From Escherichia coli (GTDB lineage: Bacteria; Pseudomonadota; Gammaproteobacteria; Enterobacterales; Enterobacteriaceae), in the NCBI RefSeq assembly GCF_003018115.1, contig NZ_CP027457.1: DNA of 64,000 bases. One strand, written 5' to 3'. A program made the position numbers and the translations under genes. The notes beneath the pieces are model-generated. The model did not search any database. It was not told where the DNA came from and worked only from the letters and a program-made list of their open reading frames with translations. Shown piece by piece: positions 9,815 through 53,401 of this stretch; within the stretch, counting starts at the first letter, position 1, and every line of letters starts with the position of its first letter.

Positions 9815-11677
9815 TCACGACAGCTCAGGAGGGTTATTCCTGATGTCATCTTCACAAATAATGGTTAACGCATCATATATCATTCTGCGTCTGTTCCTGT
9901 TTTCGGCCTTATCGCCATACAACATCATCACATTTTTAATTTCATCGACCGGTGATTTCACATAGTGAACTAATACACCAAGCTTCTCAACACATTGCAG
10001 TAAAGTATATTTCTTACTGCCTGTGAAAAGCCCTATCATAGTTTCTTTACGTTCGCGACTGGATAATACTTTGTTTTCCATAATGACTTCAGCCAGCGTC
10101 TTACCATCATAAACATACTCTTTATCTATCAGAATATTTATCTTATCCAGCACCTTCTCTACGTCATCAAGCAAACCTGTAATATATGGGGGCGCAATAT
10201 ATGGTTTCGTACTGATCTTTTCAAGCATACAATTATACATCTTAATAACACGCATCAGGGTAAAATTGTTCGCATCATACTGTATTTCACCCTCCTTATA
10301 TACAGGTTCAATAAGTGGTATTGTTTCAATAAATGCATCCTGATAGGCTTTTACATGGTCAAGCCAATAAAACAACGAGCCATACTTTATATTTTTTCTA
10401 TTTACTTTAACCTCCAGTGCTGTCCGAAGCAACGATAATGCCCCCCTGACATATCCTGAAGGTAATTCACCAAACAATCCTTTTCTTTCCATGTCATCAT
10501 AATGCTGCAGCACATCATTAATTTTATTTTTCCTTATCAGACAAATGTACACCGCAAGTGTTTCGTAGCAGCTGGTCACATGAACAGCCTCATTCTGCAA
10601 CTGCCCAAAATAGCTTATAATCTTTTTCAGATATGCGTCATCACAACCATTCTTATCATTAATATTAAATACAAGATCTTTCAGACGGGAAATATATTCC
10701 TGAGATTTATCATCAAGTGAAACACTATAACGAGACAATGTTCCTTCTGCACTGTTTTCAAACTTATAAAACATTTCCAGTAATTTTTTTGCATAAGGCG
10801 TTGTATCAAAGCTGGTAAAGTCATAAAGATATTGCGCAGCGTAACCATACAAACCATGAATCCAGAGTCCTTCTCTCACCAACACTCTGAGATAATATGC
10901 AAGGTTTTTAAGTATCTTCGTCTTTCGTTGTATATCAAGTAAGACACTTAATGAATAAAATGCATTATAGAATTTATCAATATTCCTGAGCACTTTCTCC
11001 AGTTCATCCTTATCCAGCTTCTTCTCCCGGTAATCCTTTTTATATTCATTTTTGATAGCCATGATATATTGTTGCATCAGGCTCTTGCTTTTCCCGTTAT
11101 CCTTCCGTATAGTTCCTGTATATTTCCCCAGAGCATACAGCTTTCCATTTTCATGAAAATCTTCCTTGTTGAATCCCAGTTCAGCCAGATATTCCCGAAG
11201 ATAACGTTTAACAGCAGCTTCATCGCTTTCTGTATCAGCGTGATCAAGACAAGGGCAATACGATTTCTGTAAAAAATTATAAATATGATAATAAAAAGCA
11301 GAGTCATTCTCTGGTCTGTATGTATTATACATATCTACAACAAGAAAAATAACCCCAAAAGTGCGCAGACAATAGCTGCGAAGGAATTCAGGTTTTAGTG
11401 TGGAATGCACTGGATAAGAATTCATCATGTAATAAAAATGTTCATATCGGGCATATATGATCCGCCGTTGCTCCTGACTGAACACCCCTTCAGCATCAAT
11501 AATACGACTGATCTCATTATAACGTTGATCCCAGAATTTTTGATGCATTTCAAAATTGGTACTCTTCCGCTTGTGTGCCGGATTCTCGCCTTCCTTAAAC
11601 AACCCCAAAACAGTACAAATATCATACAACAGATTTGTAAATGTGCGCATATGCTGTGCTCTCCGGTTGGTTTGCAT
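9815..11677 (-). CDS. Hypothetical 620-aa protein, AT-rich orphan gene (alternative start at 11650 with better RBS gives 611 aa)
   Basis: Long uninterrupted ORF in otherwise AT-rich DNA; no Walker A, HUH, or other motif recognised; helix-rich K/E/Y-rich composition. Confidence 0.7.
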   Translation of the reverse strand: MQTNRRAQHMRTFTNLLYDICTVLGLFKEGENPAHKRKSTNFEMHQKFWDQRYNEISRIIDAEGVFSQEQRRIIYARYEHFYYMMNSYPVHSTLKPEFLRSYCLRTFGVIFLVVDMYNTYRPENDSAFYYHIYNFLQKSYCPCLDHADTESDEAAVKRYLREYLAELGFNKEDFHENGKLYALGKYTGTIRKDNGKSKSLMQQYIMAIKNEYKKDYREKKLDKDELEKVLRNIDKFYNAFYSLSVLLDIQRKTKILKNLAYYLRVLVREGLWIHGLYGYAAQYLYDFTSFDTTPYAKKLLEMFYKFENSAEGTLSRYSVSLDDKSQEYISRLKDLVFNINDKNGCDDAYLKKIISYFGQLQNEAVHVTSCYETLAVYICLIRKNKINDVLQHYDDMERKGLFGELPSGYVRGALSLLRTALEVKVNRKNIKYGSLFYWLDHVKAYQDAFIETIPLIEPVYKEGEIQYDANNFTLMRVIKMYNCMLEKISTKPYIAPPYITGLLDDVEKVLDKINILIDKEYVYDGKTLAEVIMENKVLSSRERKETMIGLFTGSKKYTLLQCVEKLGVLVHYVKSPVDEIKNVMMLYGDKAENRNRRRMIYDALTIICEDDIRNNPPELS

Positions 11678-11732
11678 TTTATCGCAGAGGACATTCTGAG
11701 CTTAACGTATCAAACTGACACAACGACATGCA

Positions 11733-12038
11733 ATGCATATGGAGAACAATATGTCAAATCAAACCGGACAGCTTTACACGCCTTCACGCATCCTGCGTAT
11801 GGCTGAACTTACCCGACTGCTGGGTATATCAAGATCTACTATTTACGTGAAAATAAATCCGGCCTCGAAATACCACGACCCTACCTTTCCCAAACCAATA
11901 AGGCTTGGTAGTGCATCCGTAGGCTGGCGGGCATCTGCCATCGATGAGTGGCTGATGTTACATACGGCACCAGCCTGGTCTGAACCTGAAAACAAACGAA
12001 AGGAACTTAATGATGACGACAAAACTATCACTCCCTGA
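11733..12038 (+). CDS. alpA: AlpA-family phage-type transcriptional regulator (start may be 11751)
   Basis: MAELTRLLGISRSTIY...FPKPIRLGSASVGWRASAIDEWL matches AlpA HTH pattern (RLxEVxxxTGLSRSTIYRLxxxGxFPKPxKLGxRAVGWxxSEIxxWI). Confidence 0.7.
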   Translation: MHMENNMSNQTGQLYTPSRILRMAELTRLLGISRSTIYVKINPASKYHDPTFPKPIRLGSASVGWRASAIDEWLMLHTAPAWSEPENKRKELNDDDKTITP

Positions 12039-13539
12039 ACTTGACACAACTAAACTGCCTGACAGGTGCCAGGCATTACTTGATGAAATGCATGAAGAAA
12101 CAGGAATACGCCGTGAAATACTTCTGTCTGTTATGCTGACGGTCATGGCTGCCTCGGTCCAGGATACGCATGAAGTTGAACTTTCCGGAGGGCAACGTAC
12201 CAGCCTTCAGATATTTATGTGTCTTTCATCAGCATCAGGCAGTGGAAAAACCTCTGCCTGCGCAAAATTAATCGCTCCTGTTCATGAAACAGAAGAAGAA
12301 CTACATCAGGCATATATCGACGATAAAAAAAACTATGACCGAATGATGGAAATGTGGACAACAGATAAAAAAATCCTGGAGCGGAGATATAAAAAGGAAA
12401 TTGAAAGATCCCCGGAAAATGCTGCTGCTGCACGAGCAGCACTTGAAAAGTGTATAGCAAATAAACCCGAACCTCCCGTACAACAGGTTCTCATCGTGAA
12501 TGACGCGACACCAGAAGGGATAGCTTTGAAACTCAGCCAGTCACCCTCTCTTCTGTTGCTGTCTGATGAAGGAGGTACTATTCTGGATAAGCGTTTCGAA
12601 CGCAAATCGGCACTGTACAACACATTATGGAGTGGGCAACCAGTCAACGTTGAACGGGCATCCAGACCCGGGTTCCGGCTGAATGATGTCCGTCTCACTA
12701 TACTTATACTGACTCAACCGGTAATATTTAATAAGTTTTTTACTCTCACTGGCGATCAGATCCGGGGCAATGGCTTTCTGGCCCGGTTGCTATTTTGCGA
12801 ACCCGGAGCAATTAAAATAATGACGACAGAACCGCATACTGCCACTCCTGTTGTGACGCAACAATGTGCAAGCTGTTTTCGTAAGAAAAGTTTTGGCAGT
12901 CAGATCAGAGACTCTCTGAGAGCATCCAGAGAAAGACGTGCAAAAAGTAAAGAGCGCATCTGCATGACATTATCAAATGCAGCATCCCGCGCACTGGAGC
13001 GCTTTCACAAAGAAAATATGGATACTGTCAGACAGAATCCTCATATGGGTACTTTTGAAGACATTATTGTCAGAAAAAGAGAGCAGGTTGTCAGGATAGC
13101 AGCACTTCTGGAACTGGAGAAAGATCCAGACTCGACAGTAATAACGCTGGAAAGTACTAATAGCGCCATTTATCTCATTGAATTTTATTTCAAGCATCTT
13201 ATATATAAACTTGAATCCCTTCGGGAAATATCCCCGGCTGAGAAACTTGATAAATGGCTTCAGAAAAGAATTATCACAACAGCAGGTTACATATTCCAGA
13301 AAAGTTATATTTTACAATATGCCCCATATGCTCTCAGGAAAAAATGTGTTCTGGATGAAGCACTTGACATACTGGCGGAACAAAGGAAAATAAGGATTGA
13401 TGATAACCTGGTTGTTTATATAGGAAACACGATTACACCATCCGAACTGGCAAAAAAACTAAATATTCCTGCATTCGATGCCGGAGTTTTCATTTGTGAT
13501 CATCAAAACATACTGAAGTATCACCGAAACAGACTATAG
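12010..13539 (+). CDS. P-loop NTPase-like protein in the primase/helicase-like slot of P4/CP4-57-type elements (YfjI-like)
   Basis: 509-aa ORF overlapping alpA 3' end; near-Walker-A SASGSGKTS and hhhhDEGG Walker-B-like motif. Confidence 0.5.
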   Translation: MMTTKLSLPELDTTKLPDRCQALLDEMHEETGIRREILLSVMLTVMAASVQDTHEVELSGGQRTSLQIFMCLSSASGSGKTSACAKLIAPVHETEEELHQAYIDDKKNYDRMMEMWTTDKKILERRYKKEIERSPENAAAARAALEKCIANKPEPPVQQVLIVNDATPEGIALKLSQSPSLLLLSDEGGTILDKRFERKSALYNTLWSGQPVNVERASRPGFRLNDVRLTILILTQPVIFNKFFTLTGDQIRGNGFLARLLFCEPGAIKIMTTEPHTATPVVTQQCASCFRKKSFGSQIRDSLRASRERRAKSKERICMTLSNAASRALERFHKENMDTVRQNPHMGTFEDIIVRKREQVVRIAALLELEKDPDSTVITLESTNSAIYLIEFYFKHLIYKLESLREISPAEKLDKWLQKRIITTAGYIFQKSYILQYAPYALRKKCVLDEALDILAEQRKIRIDDNLVVYIGNTITPSELAKKLNIPAFDAGVFICDHQNILKYHRNRL

Positions 13540-13708
13540 ATACTATCGGACAAAAAATAAATTATCACAAGTGTATTATTCGTTATAATAATGAATAATC
13601 GTTATCTGAGTGCAATGCCAGGTTTTCATTACGAACTGGCATTGCATTTATTTTTCAAAAAAGAAAGCAGTAACCATTTGGCTACTCTGAGTATGCCAGT
13701 CCATGAAA

Positions 13709-14926
13709 CTAAGCGAATTCCTTAGTGTTTTTAGCAAGTTGAGACATCACATAATCCGCCCATGCCTGCATCATCGGTACACGCTGCTCCAGTAGATCAG
13801 TACGATGATATGCCGCCTCAACCTTATTTTTCAGCGTATGAGCGAGCGCCCTTTCCGCCAGATCCCGCGAATACCCCTGTTCACTACACCAGTCCCTGAA
13901 TGTTGAGCGAAAACCATGTGCCGTGGCAACTCGCCCCGGTATATCACTGATGGCTTTCTTTTTACGCAGAAAACTCGTCAACACCATATCTGAAAGGATC
14001 TGCTGCTTTCTGGGAGAAGGAAACACTAGTTCATCATGCAAACCACGTATATTTTCCAGAATGTGAATGGCCTGCCGGGATAAAGGAACACGATGCTGTA
14101 TCCTGGCTTTCATTCTTTCTGCGGGTATAGTCCATATCCGCTTATGAAAATCAATTTCAGCCCAGCGCATTCCCCTGGCTTCGCCCGAGCGGGTTGCTGT
14201 AAGTATCACCATTAATAACAGTGCCCGGGTAACATTATAAGGTTCATCTGTATACACACTGGTCGCCACAAAAAGCGGTAACTGCCTCCAGGGCATTGCG
14301 GGTTGGTGTTCATCACGTCCTCTTGTCTGCTGAGGAAGCAAATGGTCAACCACATCAACAGGGTTTGCCACACAAAAACCGTGCGCCCATCCCCACTGCA
14401 TAACAACATGAATGCGCTGTTTAACCCGGCTTGCCGTTTCTGACAAGGTTAACCAGACTGGACGCAGTGTTTCTGCCACGTCCGCAGCCGTAATCGAATC
14501 CAGCGTTTTTGCTCCCAGTTGAGGAAACGCGTAATTTTCAAGCGTCGATAACCACTGCCTGACATGCTTTGGATTTTCCCATCCCGGTGACAATTCAGCA
14601 TGTACACGCCTGGCTGCATCGGCAAATGTTGGGATAACAACTTTTTCAGCTTCAGCCTTTTTAATCTCCAGTGGGTCATCACCTGCAGCAAGTTGCTCTC
14701 GCATTATCCGGGCAGCACGTGCAGCTTCAGCAATACTGACCTCAGGATAAGTTCCCAATCCAGCATTACGCCTTTTTTGTGTCACCGGACTTACATAACG
14801 AAAAACCCATTTACCCCGCCCTTTTACTGAAGAAGGATGAAGAGTCAGTCCTGTAATTCCCCCATGGGGCAATGGTTTGTCATCAGGTTTGATATGCCTT
14901 GCTTTAGTATCCGTCAATACTGCCAT
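13709..14926 (-). CDS. int: P4-type tyrosine integrase
   Basis: 405-aa ORF, N-terminus MAVLTDTKARHIKP... typical of P4-family integrases; C-terminal R...HGFRSTFRDW...Y catalytic motifs. Confidence 0.9.
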   Translation of the reverse strand: MAVLTDTKARHIKPDDKPLPHGGITGLTLHPSSVKGRGKWVFRYVSPVTQKRRNAGLGTYPEVSIAEAARAARIMREQLAAGDDPLEIKKAEAEKVVIPTFADAARRVHAELSPGWENPKHVRQWLSTLENYAFPQLGAKTLDSITAADVAETLRPVWLTLSETASRVKQRIHVVMQWGWAHGFCVANPVDVVDHLLPQQTRGRDEHQPAMPWRQLPLFVATSVYTDEPYNVTRALLLMVILTATRSGEARGMRWAEIDFHKRIWTIPAERMKARIQHRVPLSRQAIHILENIRGLHDELVFPSPRKQQILSDMVLTSFLRKKKAISDIPGRVATAHGFRSTFRDWCSEQGYSRDLAERALAHTLKNKVEAAYHRTDLLEQRVPMMQAWADYVMSQLAKNTKEFA

Positions 14927-15085
14927 ACGCTAATTCCTGTTACTCTGGTATGCCATCCAGTATGCCATTAGTCTCTCGCTTCACTAAGAATACATTAGAT
15001 AATATCGGACAGCAAAAAGTGTAATACATTGTTTATAATGAAATTATATAACACCCCCGGATTAAGTCAGATTTATTTCAGGCGG

Positions 15086-15100
15086 CCCCCCTCACCGCCA
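15086..15100 (+). other. tRNA-Ser 3'-end-like att core remnant (CCCCCCTCACCGCCA)
   Basis: 15-nt string ending in CCA matches the recalled 3' acceptor end of tRNA-Ser (serW/serX type); upstream sequence is AT-rich and not a tRNA body; ~160 bp from integrase start. Confidence 0.55.
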
Positions 15101-15112
15101 TATTTAAAGAAG

Positions 15113-15142
15113 AGCTCGTACGAAAGTACGGGCTTTTTTTTC
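15113..15142 (+). terminator. Rho-independent terminator hairpin (GAAA tetraloop plus T8), possibly bidirectional
   Basis: gctcgtac-gaaa-gtacgggc followed by tttttttt; preceded by A-rich tract on the other strand; lies just after the tRNA-like fragment and downstream of the 15192..15878 minus-strand gene. Confidence 0.55.
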
Positions 15143-15191
15143 GTATATTGCACACACCGGGGGGATGAGAATCCCCGACCGGGATACTTAG

Positions 15192-15878
15192 TTAATGCAA
15201 CGGTTCACTCTTTGTCGCCGCGACTAATGGGCGAATTTTGTCACGAGTCTCCCAGACCGGAGGGATTTCCTCCAATTTAGTGACAGAAGCTCGTACAAAA
15301 GGCACCCGTGCAAGAGTCATAATCGTATCCAACCAACGGTCACGAATAATGCGATCCGCCCTTTCATGACTCGGGTCATCCAGCTCAATAACACAGACTA
15401 TTTTATTGTTCTTCTTTGAAACCAGAACATAATCCATTGCCATGCCATTATAAATTGCAAAGAAACGCTTTCTTTCTTCTTCGCTAAACTCAGGTTGTTC
15501 TGGAAAGTTGATCAAGCGCCCCAGAGAGACCTGGCAATGGATATGACAATAATGTCCAAACCATTTTTCCAGATTATCGAAATACATTTTTTCACAACGC
15601 GTGATTAACCACTCTTTTCTTTCCAATAAAATACCTTCGGCAACCATTCCCTGAAATAACTCATCTCGCTCTTGCCAACGAGAGTCACGATAGGTTTTCT
15701 GCGGTATATAGCTCCTTGTCGACGCCTTAGCGGCAGGGGAAGTTGCAGATGAAGGGACTGGTTGCGATTTAGCGATGATTACCGATGAGGCAACTTTTCG
15801 GAGTGTCAATTTTCTGGCAACAGCAAAACCGGCGATAAATGCAATTGTCAAACAAGTTACAAAAGACATAAAGCTCAT
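15192..15878 (-). CDS. Hypothetical membrane-anchored protein, DUF2726-like (restriction-endonuclease-like fold) C-terminal domain
   Basis: 228-aa ORF with N-terminal TM helix; C-terminal region ...DYVLVSKKNNKIVCVIELDDPSH... resembles DUF2726 (recalled, unverified). Confidence 0.45.
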   Translation of the reverse strand: MSFMSFVTCLTIAFIAGFAVARKLTLRKVASSVIIAKSQPVPSSATSPAAKASTRSYIPQKTYRDSRWQERDELFQGMVAEGILLERKEWLITRCEKMYFDNLEKWFGHYCHIHCQVSLGRLINFPEQPEFSEEERKRFFAIYNGMAMDYVLVSKKNNKIVCVIELDDPSHERADRIIRDRWLDTIMTLARVPFVRASVTKLEEIPPVWETRDKIRPLVAATKSEPLH

Positions 15879-16410
15879 AATTAATGTTCACCTATCCATG
15901 TTGATTATATTTCATTACCAATGTTACTCGCTGAAGCGTGTTACATGCCAACAATGCAACGATCAATATATAGTTAGTATCATGTTTTGATTATTACAAC
16001 CATCCCTATTTAGCCATTGCGGCTTGCCTTCCACAAAAAAACAACAACACACAATATTAGCCAAAGAATTAATTAAGATTAACCTTACATTTATAATATT
16101 ATCCCTAAAGAATAAATCAGAGGAATATATTCGGTGTTAAACAGTCAGTCAAAGTATGGCCCATTGTTGATTAAACCTCATAAGCAAAATTGGCACCAGA
16201 TCTCCTGTACAGGTTGAATGGCCGAAAAAAGATAGGCAGATGCTCATTTTTTTGGCTTCTGGAAGAAAAACTCTCCGCGCTGGCAGTATTACACTGGTCT
16301 GATGCTATGACGAAAAATGCCTGGTAAGAGTATCTAAACCAGACTCCAGTTCAGCTTATCAACACCCTCAAAGTCGCCCCCCTGAACGCTAACCTGAAGT
16401 GAAAATCTGT

Positions 16411-16441
16411 TGAAATAAAACAAAGCCCGGTTCGCCCGGGC
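16411..16441 (-). terminator. phoH rho-independent terminator
   Basis: gcccgg-ttcg-cccggg hairpin followed on minus strand by TTTGTTTTATTT. Confidence 0.6.
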
Positions 16442-16459
16442 TCTGCACCGATAATACAC

Positions 16460-17524
16460 TTAACTGTATGCATGTAGCGTACGTTGGCAAAGTGCCGAAC
16501 GTACGCAATCCTCTTTACCGAATCGGACGATCCCGACCATTTCATCTTCTTCGAAACGTTCCAGTGCGTCACTTAATCCGGAGTGCACGCCGCGAGGTAA
16601 ATCGCATTGCGTGATATCACCGTTGACGATAACCGTCACGTTCTCCCCGAGGCGGGTTAAAAACATTTTCATTTGCGCGGCAGTCACATTCTGCGCCTCG
16701 TCAAGAATGACGACTGCATTTTCAAAGGTACGTCCACGCATATAGGCGAACGGCGCAATTTCCACCTTCCCTATTTCCGGTCGCAGGCAGTACTGCATAA
16801 AGGAAGCCCCTAAGCGCCGGACCAGCACGTCGTATACCGGGCGAAAATAGGGAGCAAACTTTTCTGCGATATCTCCAGGTAAGAAGCCAAGATCTTCATC
16901 GGCTTGCAGAACTGGACGGGTGACGATAATCCTGTCGACATCCTTATGTATCAGGGCCTCTGCCGCTTTTGCTGCGCTGATCCAGGTTTTTCCGCACCCG
17001 GCTTCGCCCGTGGCGAATATCAGCTGCTTACTCTCAATAGCCTTCAGATAGTGCAATTGCGCTTCATTTCGCGCGAGGATGGGCGAGGTATCGCGACTGT
17101 CGCGGGCCATACCAATGGCTTCTACGCCGCTCATCTGCACAAGCGAGGTGACCGATTCTTCTTCACGCTGCTTATGGCTGCGCGAATCCCGTCTCAGCAC
17201 ACGTTTTGCCTCGCGACGAGCTTTGATCACTGCTTTTTGTCTTCCCATGGAGAGCACCTTGAGTTGTTTGTATTCATCACACGCGCCGTTGGCAGCGCGA
17301 TTATGCGCACGAACATCAGAGGGTTGGCTTCCTTGTAAGCCATAGTTTGCTTTTGGATAAAATGCCGAAAAACGGCTACGCGCACCGTTTACGGCGTCGG
17401 TAACACATGAAAAGAAAGGATGAGGTTGAAAATGCAAAGTGACGAGATGACTACCGGAGGAGAAAACTCCGCGAGTGGTGGCGCGTTGATTATCTAAAAC
17501 ATGTCCAGTACAGGACGTTACCAT
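16460..17524 (-). CDS. phoH: PhoH, phosphate-starvation-inducible ATPase
   Basis: 354-aa ORF with Walker A GEAGCGKT; matches recalled K-12 PhoH. Confidence 0.9.
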   Translation of the reverse strand: MVTSCTGHVLDNQRATTRGVFSSGSHLVTLHFQPHPFFSCVTDAVNGARSRFSAFYPKANYGLQGSQPSDVRAHNRAANGACDEYKQLKVLSMGRQKAVIKARREAKRVLRRDSRSHKQREEESVTSLVQMSGVEAIGMARDSRDTSPILARNEAQLHYLKAIESKQLIFATGEAGCGKTWISAAKAAEALIHKDVDRIIVTRPVLQADEDLGFLPGDIAEKFAPYFRPVYDVLVRRLGASFMQYCLRPEIGKVEIAPFAYMRGRTFENAVVILDEAQNVTAAQMKMFLTRLGENVTVIVNGDITQCDLPRGVHSGLSDALERFEEDEMVGIVRFGKEDCVRSALCQRTLHAYS

Positions 17525-17673
17525 CCGCGATCTCCATAGTGACTGACTATCACTGCCGGGAACTTCCGCTGCTACTTAATAAGTACAACAGATCTCGCAT
17601 TTATTGCAACAATATATTTACTTATATTTAACTATAAAACACCATTTCAGTGACATTAGTTTCTACTGGAAAG

Positions 17674-17691
17674 ATGACAGAGTGATGACAG
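17674..17691 (-). promoter_or_regulatory. Pho box (PhoB site) upstream of phoH
   Basis: Minus strand reads CTGTCAT-cact-CTGTCAT, matching CTGTCAT-N4-CTGTCAT consensus. Confidence 0.6.
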
Positions 17692-17719
17692 TGATGAAAA
17701 AAGCTGTGTGCTTTCAGCA

Positions 17720-17865
17720 GGATTTGCATCAGGCATCAGTGCACGATCGCCGGATGCGGCGTGAACGCCTTATCCAGCCTACCAAACCCGCACTGATTGT
17801 AGGCATGATAAGACGCGCAAGCGTCGCATCAGGCATCTGCGCACAAATGCCTTATCCGCCTAAAA
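17720..17865. repeat. REP/BIME cluster
   Basis: GCCGGATGCGGCGTGAACGCCTTATCC and GCCTGATGCGACGCTTGCGCGTCTTATCATGCCTAC-type REP units in alternating orientation. Confidence 0.6.
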
Positions 17866-17868
17866 ACA

Positions 17869-19140
17869 TTAAACCCGCAATAATGCGCTTCCGAGATAAT
17901 CGTTCGCGTCCTTCACTCCCGGCAGCGCAAAAAAATAACCGCCGCCGATAGGTTTAACGTATTCCTCCAGCGCTTCGCCATTGAGCCTTTTTTGTACTGT
18001 CAGGAAGCCTTTTTCCAGATCGTGCTGGTAGCAGACAAACAGCAACCCCATATCCAGTTGTCCGGAGTTGGTGACGCCCAGTGAATAACTGTAGCCACGA
18101 CGCAGCATCAGGCTGGACTCACTCTCCGCCGTGCGGGGATTCGCCAGCCGGATATGGCTGTCCAACGCAATCACCTTCCCTTCCGGGTCGCTGGCGTAAT
18201 CAGGCACATCATGCTCATGTTGCATTCCCAGCGGCGCACCGGTTTGCTTATCACGGCCAAAAATCGTCTGCTGTTCTTTCAGCGGCGTTCTGTCCCAAAA
18301 TTCCACTCGAAACTGAATCAAGCGTACTGCCTGATAGCTGCCACCGATTGTCCACGCAAGCTCCTGCTGATCTGCCGTTACCCACACCACTTTTTGCATC
18401 AACTTATCATTCTGGCTATCGGGATTGGCAGTGCCGTCTTTGAAACCCAGCAAATTAATCGGCGTCTCTTTGCCTTTACTACGCGCCGCGTGATCGGAAA
18501 TAAACCCTTCCCGCTTCCAGCGCACACTGAGCAAATCCGGCGTGTGTTTGATGATATCGCGCAGCGCATGGATCACCGTGTCCTGGGTGTTGGCGCAAAT
18601 CTGTAACAACACATCACCATGACATAACGCCGCATCCAGCGAGTCGTTGGGGAAACGCGTCATCTTCTGCAGCTTTTTTGGCATCTGTGGCGCAAGGCCA
18701 AAGCGCTCATCAAACAATGAGTGACCCACCGATAACGTGATGGTGAGATTATCGGGCGCAATGTAGCCGCCAAGAATGCCGGAATCGAGTGGTGGCAGGC
18801 GCGGATTTGGCGTTTCTGGTGCTGCTCCGCCCTGAGTCAGAAAAGCAAAACGCTGAGTCAACAAGCGAAACAACCGCTCAAGATCGGCTTTATCGCTGGC
18901 AAGCACATCAAACGCCACCAGCATCATTGCGGCCTGTTGTGGCGTCAGGATCCCTGCCTGATGCTCACCATAAAACGGCTGTTTCTCATTGCGTGCATCC
19001 GGTGAAAGCGTACCCGGCGCACTTTGCGTTTTTTGTGCATGAGCGACCGGACAACTTCCCGCCAGCGCCAGTGCACCAATCCCTTTCAGTAAACGTCGGC
19101 GTGACGGTCCATTCACGCCGTTTTCATCTTTATACTGCAT
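17869..19140 (-). CDS. efeB: EfeB, Tat-exported Dyp-type haem peroxidase
   Basis: 423-aa ORF with twin-arginine signal [10 protein letters not shown]. Confidence 0.9.
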
Positions 19141-19145
19141 AACGC

Positions 19146-36132: not shown

Positions 36133-36231
<99 letters not shown>

Positions 36232-42037: not shown

Positions 42038-42168
42038 GCCGGATGTGATGACGCATCTTAGCCTGCCTGCAAAGAGTACTTTTCCTGTGGGCCGGATAAG
42101 GCGTTCACGCCGCATCCGGCGGCGGTGCCCTAATGCCTGATGCGACGCTAAACGCGTCTTATCAGGCC
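42038..42168. repeat. REP/BIME cluster between cbpM and torD
   Basis: GCCGGATAAGGCGTTCACGCCGCATCCGGC and GCCTGATGCGACGCTAAACGCGTCTTATCAGGCC. Confidence 0.6.
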
Positions 42169-52730: not shown

Positions 52731-52903
52731 GGTCAGTGCGTATTTGCAGCGCGACGTTATCAAAGGTGATCATCGTCGATTTACAAAAAATACACTTAGC
52801 GCCCAAAGGGTTTCGCTCCGTCACATCGAATGCTGATGTGCGGTACTGTGAACCATGACAACATGGACAGCGGAAATGGAGATGTTGAGTAATAACGGCA
52901 ACC

Positions 52904-53116
52904 TTAGAGCGTAACAACGTTCGCTGCCGCGGGGCCACGTTGCCCCTGCTCAATAGAAAATTCAACTTTCTGATTTTCGTTCAGCGTGCGGAATTCATTG
53001 CTCTGGATGGCGGTGAAATGGACGAAAACGTCTTTGCTGCCATCATCAGGAGTGATAAAGCCAAAACCTTTATCTGCGTTAAACCATTTTACTAAACCAG
53101 TCATTTTATTAGACAT
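52904..53116 (-). CDS. cspG: CspG, cold-shock protein
   Basis: 70-aa CSD protein [21 protein letters not shown]. Confidence 0.9.
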
Positions 53117-53401
53117 ATTTTACTTCCTTCATTTTGGGCCTTTCGGCAAACAGGGCTTTAATACAGAAACTACTTAGTGTTCAGGAGAGAGACTCAAAAG
53201 AAGGGGATAATGCCTGATAATGAGAACTGCTTTAGTAAACTACTTTGTATGCTGTCTGTCTTTCAAACCGACGCAGCTATTAACGCATGATAATTGAGAT
53301 TAAGCAAATTTTATTTTAGCCGTCCGGCGGTCTTAAATATCGCTGGCTTTATTTTATTAACCCCGTATAGTGCAGCGCAGTATTTTCAGTAAGGAATTTG
53401 T

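Follow-up and report, generated by a model that had tools for sequence, protein, structure and literature searches.

A probable attR junction of a SpLE1/OI-48/SRL-PAI-family island at the 3′ end of serX in Escherichia coli

The genomic island OI-43/48 is flanked by a perfect 14-bp repeat, TGGCGGTGAGGGGG, which corresponds to the last 14 bp of serW and serX and is identical to the repeat that flanks the SRL PAI (Bielaszewska et al. 2011, PMC3064760). In OI-43/48, a P4-family int gene lies at the end where ycdU and the cryptic ser′X are located, whereas the intact serX is found at the ycdW (ghrA) end, and complete excision of the island by site-specific recombination has been measured (PMC3064760). 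The int gene of this island is 15 bp shorter than that of the SRL PAI (PMC3064760). The SRL PAI integrates at serX or serW and is excised precisely in an int-dependent manner (reviewed in PMC7545054, PMC2297512).

We analyzed a 64-kb window (the whole stretch of DNA under study, 64,000 nucleotides) of an E. coli genome, in which a fragment of a serine tRNA gene lies between an integrase gene and chromosomal backbone genes (Table 1). Positions 15086–15142 very probably represent the attR junction (P arm–core–B′) of an island integrated at the 3′ end of serX, and the island belongs to the family of SpLE1, OI-48 and the SRL PAI. A serX attR of this type is an already described and very common arrangement.

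SpLE1 of O157:H7 Sakai and OI-48/OI-43 of EDL933, which are associated with tellurite resistance and adherence, have the same serX/serW site and 14-bp repeat, and almost identical P and P′ arms. Their integrase is also closely related to that of the window, which is 98% identical (390/400) to ECs_1299 of SpLE1. In these islands, int lies beside the cryptic ser′X and reads inward, and the intact serX is at the end that carries DUF4942; ECs_1299 adjoins ycdU, in the same position and orientation as the integrase of the window. The cargo differs, with ter, ure and iha in SpLE1/OI-48/OI-43 and lactate utilization genes in the window. They also differ in the chromosomal flank (ycdU in SpLE1/OI-48/OI-43, DUF2726-phoH in the window), in the length of the integrase (400 versus 405 aa) and in the base at the junction (T versus C).

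The SRL PAI was compared by description. It shares the serX/serW target, the 14-bp repeats and, as a trait of the family, int-dependent precise excision. One of its ends carries int (orf1), orf2 and rox (orf3), and an AlpA-family gene occupies the place of rox in the window; DUF957, DUF4942 and IS110-like genes are found at its other end, as in the island of E. coli 2014C-4135, the closest relative of the island in the window. The int gene of the SRL PAI is longer than that of OI-48 by 15 bp, and the window shows the same difference (1218 bp, compared with 1203 bp for ECs_1299). In contrast to the SRL PAI, neither a resistance locus nor fec genes were seen in the window.

Table 1. Positions of island, junction and flanking features in the window
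Feature	Position	Strand	Description
serX-integrated island, part inside the window	1–15085		~100% match to the 2014C-4135 island
AlpA-family helix-turn-helix gene	11733–12038	+	Pfam Phage_AlpA, E = 2.3e-17
DUF3987 gene, conserved integrase-end module	12010–13539	+	Same place relative to int in 2014C-4135, O104:H4 and E2348/69
P4-family tyrosine integrase, 405 aa	13709–14926	−	Pfam Arm-DNA-bind_3, Phage_int_M, Phage_integrase
P arm, island DNA between int and core, 159 bp	14927–15085		Conserved across relatives
Paired direct repeats GTATGCCAT	14948–14956, 14960–14968	+	Candidate arm-type integrase binding sites
Promoter-like site upstream of int	15043–15070	−	CTGACT-16-TATAAT, consensus scan 10/12
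Core, displaced serX 3′ end (cryptic ser′X)	15086–15100	+	Identical to the last 15 nt of serX
Native serX 3′ flank	15101–15183	+	Start of 181-bp RtT-like unit, truncated 98 nt from the core
Native serX intrinsic terminator	15114–15141	+	8-bp stem, GAAA loop, T8
DUF2726 gene	15192–15878	−	Pfam DUF2726, E = 4e-18; chromosomal backbone

The island side and its far end

The part of the island inside the window carries lactate utilization and permease genes, IS remnants, YagK/YfjJ-type and AlpA-family genes, a DUF3987 gene and int. The integrase is transcribed inward, away from the junction, and its start codon at 14926 lies 159 bp from the core, in agreement with the first-pass annotation, which had placed it about 160 bp away on the island side. 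A search of the neighboring island proteins against NCBIfam returned nothing except a sub-cutoff integrase-domain match for Int. By analogy with the place of rox (orf3) in the SRL PAI, the AlpA-family gene probably encodes a recombination directionality factor. The promoter-like site upstream of int is weak, and one such site is also expected from shuffled sequence.

The P arm is nearly identical in SpLE1 (Sakai), O104:H4, E2348/69, 600055 and 2014C-4135, and ends with GGCGG(T/C/−) before the core; in most of the relatives its end reads ...TTTCAGGCGGT directly before CCCCCTCACCGCCA. Between GGCGG and the 14-bp repeat, SpLE1, O104:H4, E2348/69 and 600055 have a T and 2014C-4135 lacks the base; the window has a C, which is the base of the tRNA at that position. 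Within the P arm, the two GTATGCCAT repeats are the only exact copies in the 64-kb window, and are spaced by 12 nt. A pair with the same spacing and orientation is present in the P′ arm of 2014C-4135 and SpLE1, 57 and 69 nt after the serX CCA. Judging from this arrangement, the pairs in the two arms are probably arm-type sites at which the integrase binds.

None of the 5,426 complete E. coli genomes combined the island arm of the window with its flank. For this reason, the island side was compared with 2014C-4135 and the backbone side with F9792. Window positions 1–15161 were ~100% identical to 2014C-4135, with one single-base difference in a C run. The element of 2014C-4135 is about 71 kb long, is bounded by the int-proximal remnant at one end and, beside ghrA, by an intact serX at the other, and includes the lactate genes; the earlier proposal of an island of at least 15 kb that contains these genes was thus borne out. 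Its cargo consists of lactate permease, lutABC-like genes, CDI, a type I R-M system, DarTG, dGTPase, Ag43 and a CbtA/YeeU module, with CDI, type I R-M, DarTG and Ag43 instead of the ter/ure/iha of SpLE1/OI-48. The chromosomal flank in 2014C-4135 is ycdU, as in K-12, not DUF2726, indicating that one island arm occurs in two backbones.

At the attL of 2014C-4135, the sequence reads ...GAATCCCCCCCTCACCGCCA|GATTATAAGCGCATGTTATTGTTTAACATGCGCTTTTTT..., so that the CCA of serX is followed by GATTATAAGCGCATG..., the start of the P′ arm. This P′ arm beside serX is common to 2014C-4135 and SpLE1, and in both of them the second copy of the repeat is present within the intact serX at the far end. In a circular form, attP would read ...TTTCAGGCGG-core-GATTATAAGC.... 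Directly after the reconstituted serX CCA, we observed an island-borne terminator-like hairpin, GCGCATGTTA...TAACATGCGC, with a T run (2014C-4135, L004 24330–24392; Sakai, L009). The island thus supplies a replacement terminator for serX, the native one having been displaced to attR.

Another relative has a different composition. At the attR end in E. coli 600055 (L001 1–21427), the DUF3987 gene is truncated, and it and the serX-type integrase are immediately adjoined by the yersiniabactin genes irp2, irp1, ybtUTE and fyuA. The high-pathogenicity island is normally found at an asn tRNA gene.

Given these relatives, the intact serX of the genome from which the window derives would lie outside the window, and we infer that its island copy, whose far end is beyond the window start, is complete and still mobile. 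It is very unlikely that the junction is instead a dead scar, that is, an old integration whose far end did not survive a later rearrangement or deletion, leaving attR with no attL partner and making excision as a unit impossible. The far end does lie outside the window, the related islands are mosaic and IS-rich, and the int module of 600055 is truncated and joined to yersiniabactin genes; moreover, internal deletions of OI-43/48 are frequent, and the int-proximal (5′) junction was lost in one strain (PMC3064760). However, int is full length and the P arm is intact in the window, and the adjoining 15 kb is ~100% identical to an island that has both of its ends (2014C-4135). In addition, the two junction types occur at similar frequencies among the 5,426 complete E. 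coli genomes: attL (tRNA plus P′ arm) was detected in 1,355 of them, and attR (P arm plus core plus native terminator, at coverage of at least 80%) in 1,265.

The core, the empty site and the backbone

The 15-mer CCCCCCTCACCGCCA on the plus strand corresponds to the last 15 nt of K-12 serX/serW tRNA-Ser(GGA), CCA included, which was correctly recognized in the first-pass annotation; for comparison, the 3′ end of K-12 serX reads ...GGGGGTTCGAATCCCCCCCTCACCGCCA. The whole of 15081–15142 reads GGCGG CCCCCCTCACCGCCA TATTTAAAGAAGA GCTCGTAC GAAA GTACGGGC TTTTTTTT C. The published 14-bp direct repeat TGGCGGTGAGGGGG corresponds to positions 15087–15100; these last 14 bp of serX/serW (CCCCCTCACCGCCA) are preceded by the island arm and followed by the native flank and terminator. 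The fifteenth matching base results from the T-to-C difference at the junction. Neither ARAGORN nor Rfam found a tRNA in the window, where only the last 15 nt of serX are present, consistent with the earlier observation that no tRNA body precedes the 15-mer.

Downstream of the core, the hairpin GCTCGTAC-GAAA-GTACGGGC (15114–15133) is followed by T8 (15134–15141), and has a predicted folding energy of −29.2 kcal/mol (z = −5.5). This sequence is base-for-base the one that directly follows serX in K-12, and likewise in A31 and F9792, in line with its previous assignment as the native terminator of the tRNA gene. A terminator-like site was also called here on the minus strand.

Sub-threshold Rfam matches at the junction (MicC, Thr leader and others) were dismissed, as they were driven only by the terminator hairpin. 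GGCGG...CCGCC forms an inverted repeat at 15081–15099, but only in attP and attR, because its left half is island DNA. We considered these motifs as core-type binding sites and make no such claim; nothing similar is present in attB. Elsewhere in the window, four Rfam families reached the gathering score: Ysr251 (16465–16658, plus strand), antisense to the 3′ end of phoH; ES036 (36168–36210, plus strand); naRNA4 (42090–42168, plus strand); and the cspA thermoregulator (52850–53272, minus strand).

The boundary was observed directly in strains that have no island at this site. When positions 15086–27700 of the window were aligned with the island-free strain F9792, the 12,615 nt matched without gaps and differed at a single position (99.992%). 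The alignment begins inside the serX 3′ end of F9792, where the gene order is ghrA-serX-DUF2726-phoH, and window positions 1–15085 are absent from this near-isogenic strain. A31 has the same gene order and no island, and its alignment with the window likewise starts at exactly 15086. Both F9792 and A31 join the body of serX to exactly position 15086. F9792 thus represents a near-isogenic empty site, indicating that the DNA to the left of 15086 was inserted, and that the sequence from 15086 rightward is the native serX end and its flank. The comparison with an island-free strain, which had been proposed as a check, therefore gave an exact boundary and upheld the attR arrangement.

The empty site is not restricted to these strains. 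We reconstructed attB as a query, by joining K-12 ghrA-serX to window positions 15101–15700, and found it contiguous in 419 of the 5,426 complete E. coli genomes, with up to 99.8% identity in one piece.

To the right of the junction, DUF2726, phoH, efeBOU, putP/putA and rut correspond to the 1.08-Mb region of K-12, in reverse orientation. The K-12 order is phoH-pgaDCBA-dgcT-IS3-ymdE-ycdU-[units]-serX-ghrA; the backbone variant in the window has the DUF2726 gene in place of the K-12 segment from pga to ycdU. This gene also sits between serX and phoH in the island-free strains A31 and F9792.

Two further observations concern this backbone. The serX gene of F9792 (L011 12248–12334) is annotated with a length of 87 nt and has six C's, not seven, in the T-stem/acceptor run; either the homopolymer was misassembled or this copy of the tRNA gene is defective. 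The window also has an AT-rich insert of about 2.5 kb between efeU and putP (21290–23833), which is absent from K-12 and 600055 and was found in 643 of the 5,426 genomes; the efeU-putP stretch, 2.65 kb of the window, is ~100% identical in F9792 and in four further genomes, of which two are O169:H41 ETEC. An ORF in the insert (22343–23686, plus strand) encodes a hypothetical protein of 447 aa, which has many Ser, Thr and Asn residues at its N-terminus and three C-terminal repeats of about 38 aa (...KW...ARNYL...). In Pfam, this protein matches only PipB2_N, and weakly (E = 0.017).

Native 181-bp units downstream of serX

K-12 has no island at this site, and 3.4 tandem units of 181 bp are present downstream of its serX (L002 18962–19584). 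Each unit begins with AATCCCCCCCTCACCGCCA, the last 19 nt of serX, followed by the serX terminator and then by an RtT-like element; complete K-12 units match the Rfam family RtT (RF00391) with 46.3 bits, against a cut-off of 45. The copy number differs between strains irrespective of the presence of an island: A31, Sakai, 2014C-4135 and the window have only a partial unit, O104:H4 and 600055 have one extra unit, and K-12 has up to 3.4. In the window, positions 15101–15183 are the first, truncated unit of this native array, with 99% identity to every one of the K-12 units.

At the tyrT locus, units of 178 bp each begin with the 3′ end of tRNA-Tyr. The flank in the window resembles these RtT RNA repeats (RF00391) in belonging to a tandem 181-bp unit that starts with a tRNA 3′ end, but differs in that a single unit is represented, by its first 98 nt only. 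No RtT match was obtained in the window, either with the gathering threshold or with E ≤ 10 as the cut-off.

The backbones of the DUF2726 type and of the ycdU...pga type both join a repeat unit right after an ACCGGG motif, at differing positions of the unit: CGACCGGG|ATACTTAG at 15183/15184 in the window, and ACACCGGG|TGCCCCCG in K-12 (L002 18962). The shared motif may be a coincidence, or may be a trace of another recombination event.

Because the serX end is natively repeated, an island is not needed for direct repeats of the core to exist. The first-pass annotation had recommended a search for a second copy of the core; since the block of core and terminator is natively tandem downstream of serX in K-12, this search alone is not diagnostic of an island at serX. 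For the same reason, the block in the window might be read as nothing but a native 181-bp unit that arose by tandem duplication, as at the tyrT locus, with no integrase junction and with the island boundary elsewhere. We consider this extremely unlikely. The 3.4 units of island-free K-12 do each consist of AATCCCCCCCTCACCGCCA with the same terminator, and unit number varies with or without the island; however, the core in the window is preceded by the island P arm (...TTTCAGGCGG) rather than by the end of a unit (...GCGAGTCAAT), and in the island-free strains F9792 and A31 the serX body joins at exactly 15086. The right-hand sequence, being the first and partial native unit, is the B′ flank, and is consistent with attR.

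Islands of this family were joined to a core inside a 181-bp unit in none of the 5,426 complete genomes, compared with 1,355 at the tRNA gene itself, suggesting that target recognition needs sequence of the tRNA body upstream of the core. Tentatively, attB might require the T arm of the tRNA body, 5′ of the core, and the 181-bp units, each with a perfect copy of the 14-bp core, might be unused decoy cores and not secondary attachment sites; the base that is T, C or deleted just left of the core may mark the edge of the strand-exchange region. We hold this model to be possible, with the odds somewhat against it.

A chance match of the 15-mer to a tRNA end has only its shortness in its favor and can be dismissed: the 15-mer is the sole copy in the 64-kb window on both strands with up to two mismatches allowed (0.10 matches in shuffled sequence; by arithmetic, about 1e-4 exact matches expected in 128 kb), the boundary is exact in the empty-site strains, and the match continues for 98 contiguous nt at ~99% identity into the serX flank. 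This contiguous match (15086–15183 against the K-12 serX 3′ end and flank, terminator included; 98–99% identity) indicates that the observation made in the first-pass annotation is real.

Proposed origin and meaning of the junction

In the proposed course of events, the P4-family tyrosine integrase (13709–14926, minus strand) would have recombined the attP of the island with the terminal ~14 bp of serX. The copy of the serX end that the island brought with it, together with the island-borne terminator, would now complete serX at attL, which would lie to the left of window position 1 (by about 56 kb in 2014C-4135). The original serX 3′ end and its native terminator would thereby have been displaced to attR, directly before chromosomal DUF2726-phoH. 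The GTATGCCAT pairs of both arms would be the probable arm-type integrase sites used in this reaction, and the Rox-like AlpA-family gene (11733–12038) probably provides the directionality factor for excision.

The junction is of use mainly for annotation: it sets the right boundary of a large, horizontally acquired island at 15085/15086, and assigns the lactate genes and their neighbors to the island, and DUF2726 and phoH to the backbone. The tandem copies of the serX end call for caution in automated att-site calling at serX. The element itself belongs to a well-studied family of islands that are proficient in excision and whose cargo in EHEC and Shigella includes virulence and resistance genes.
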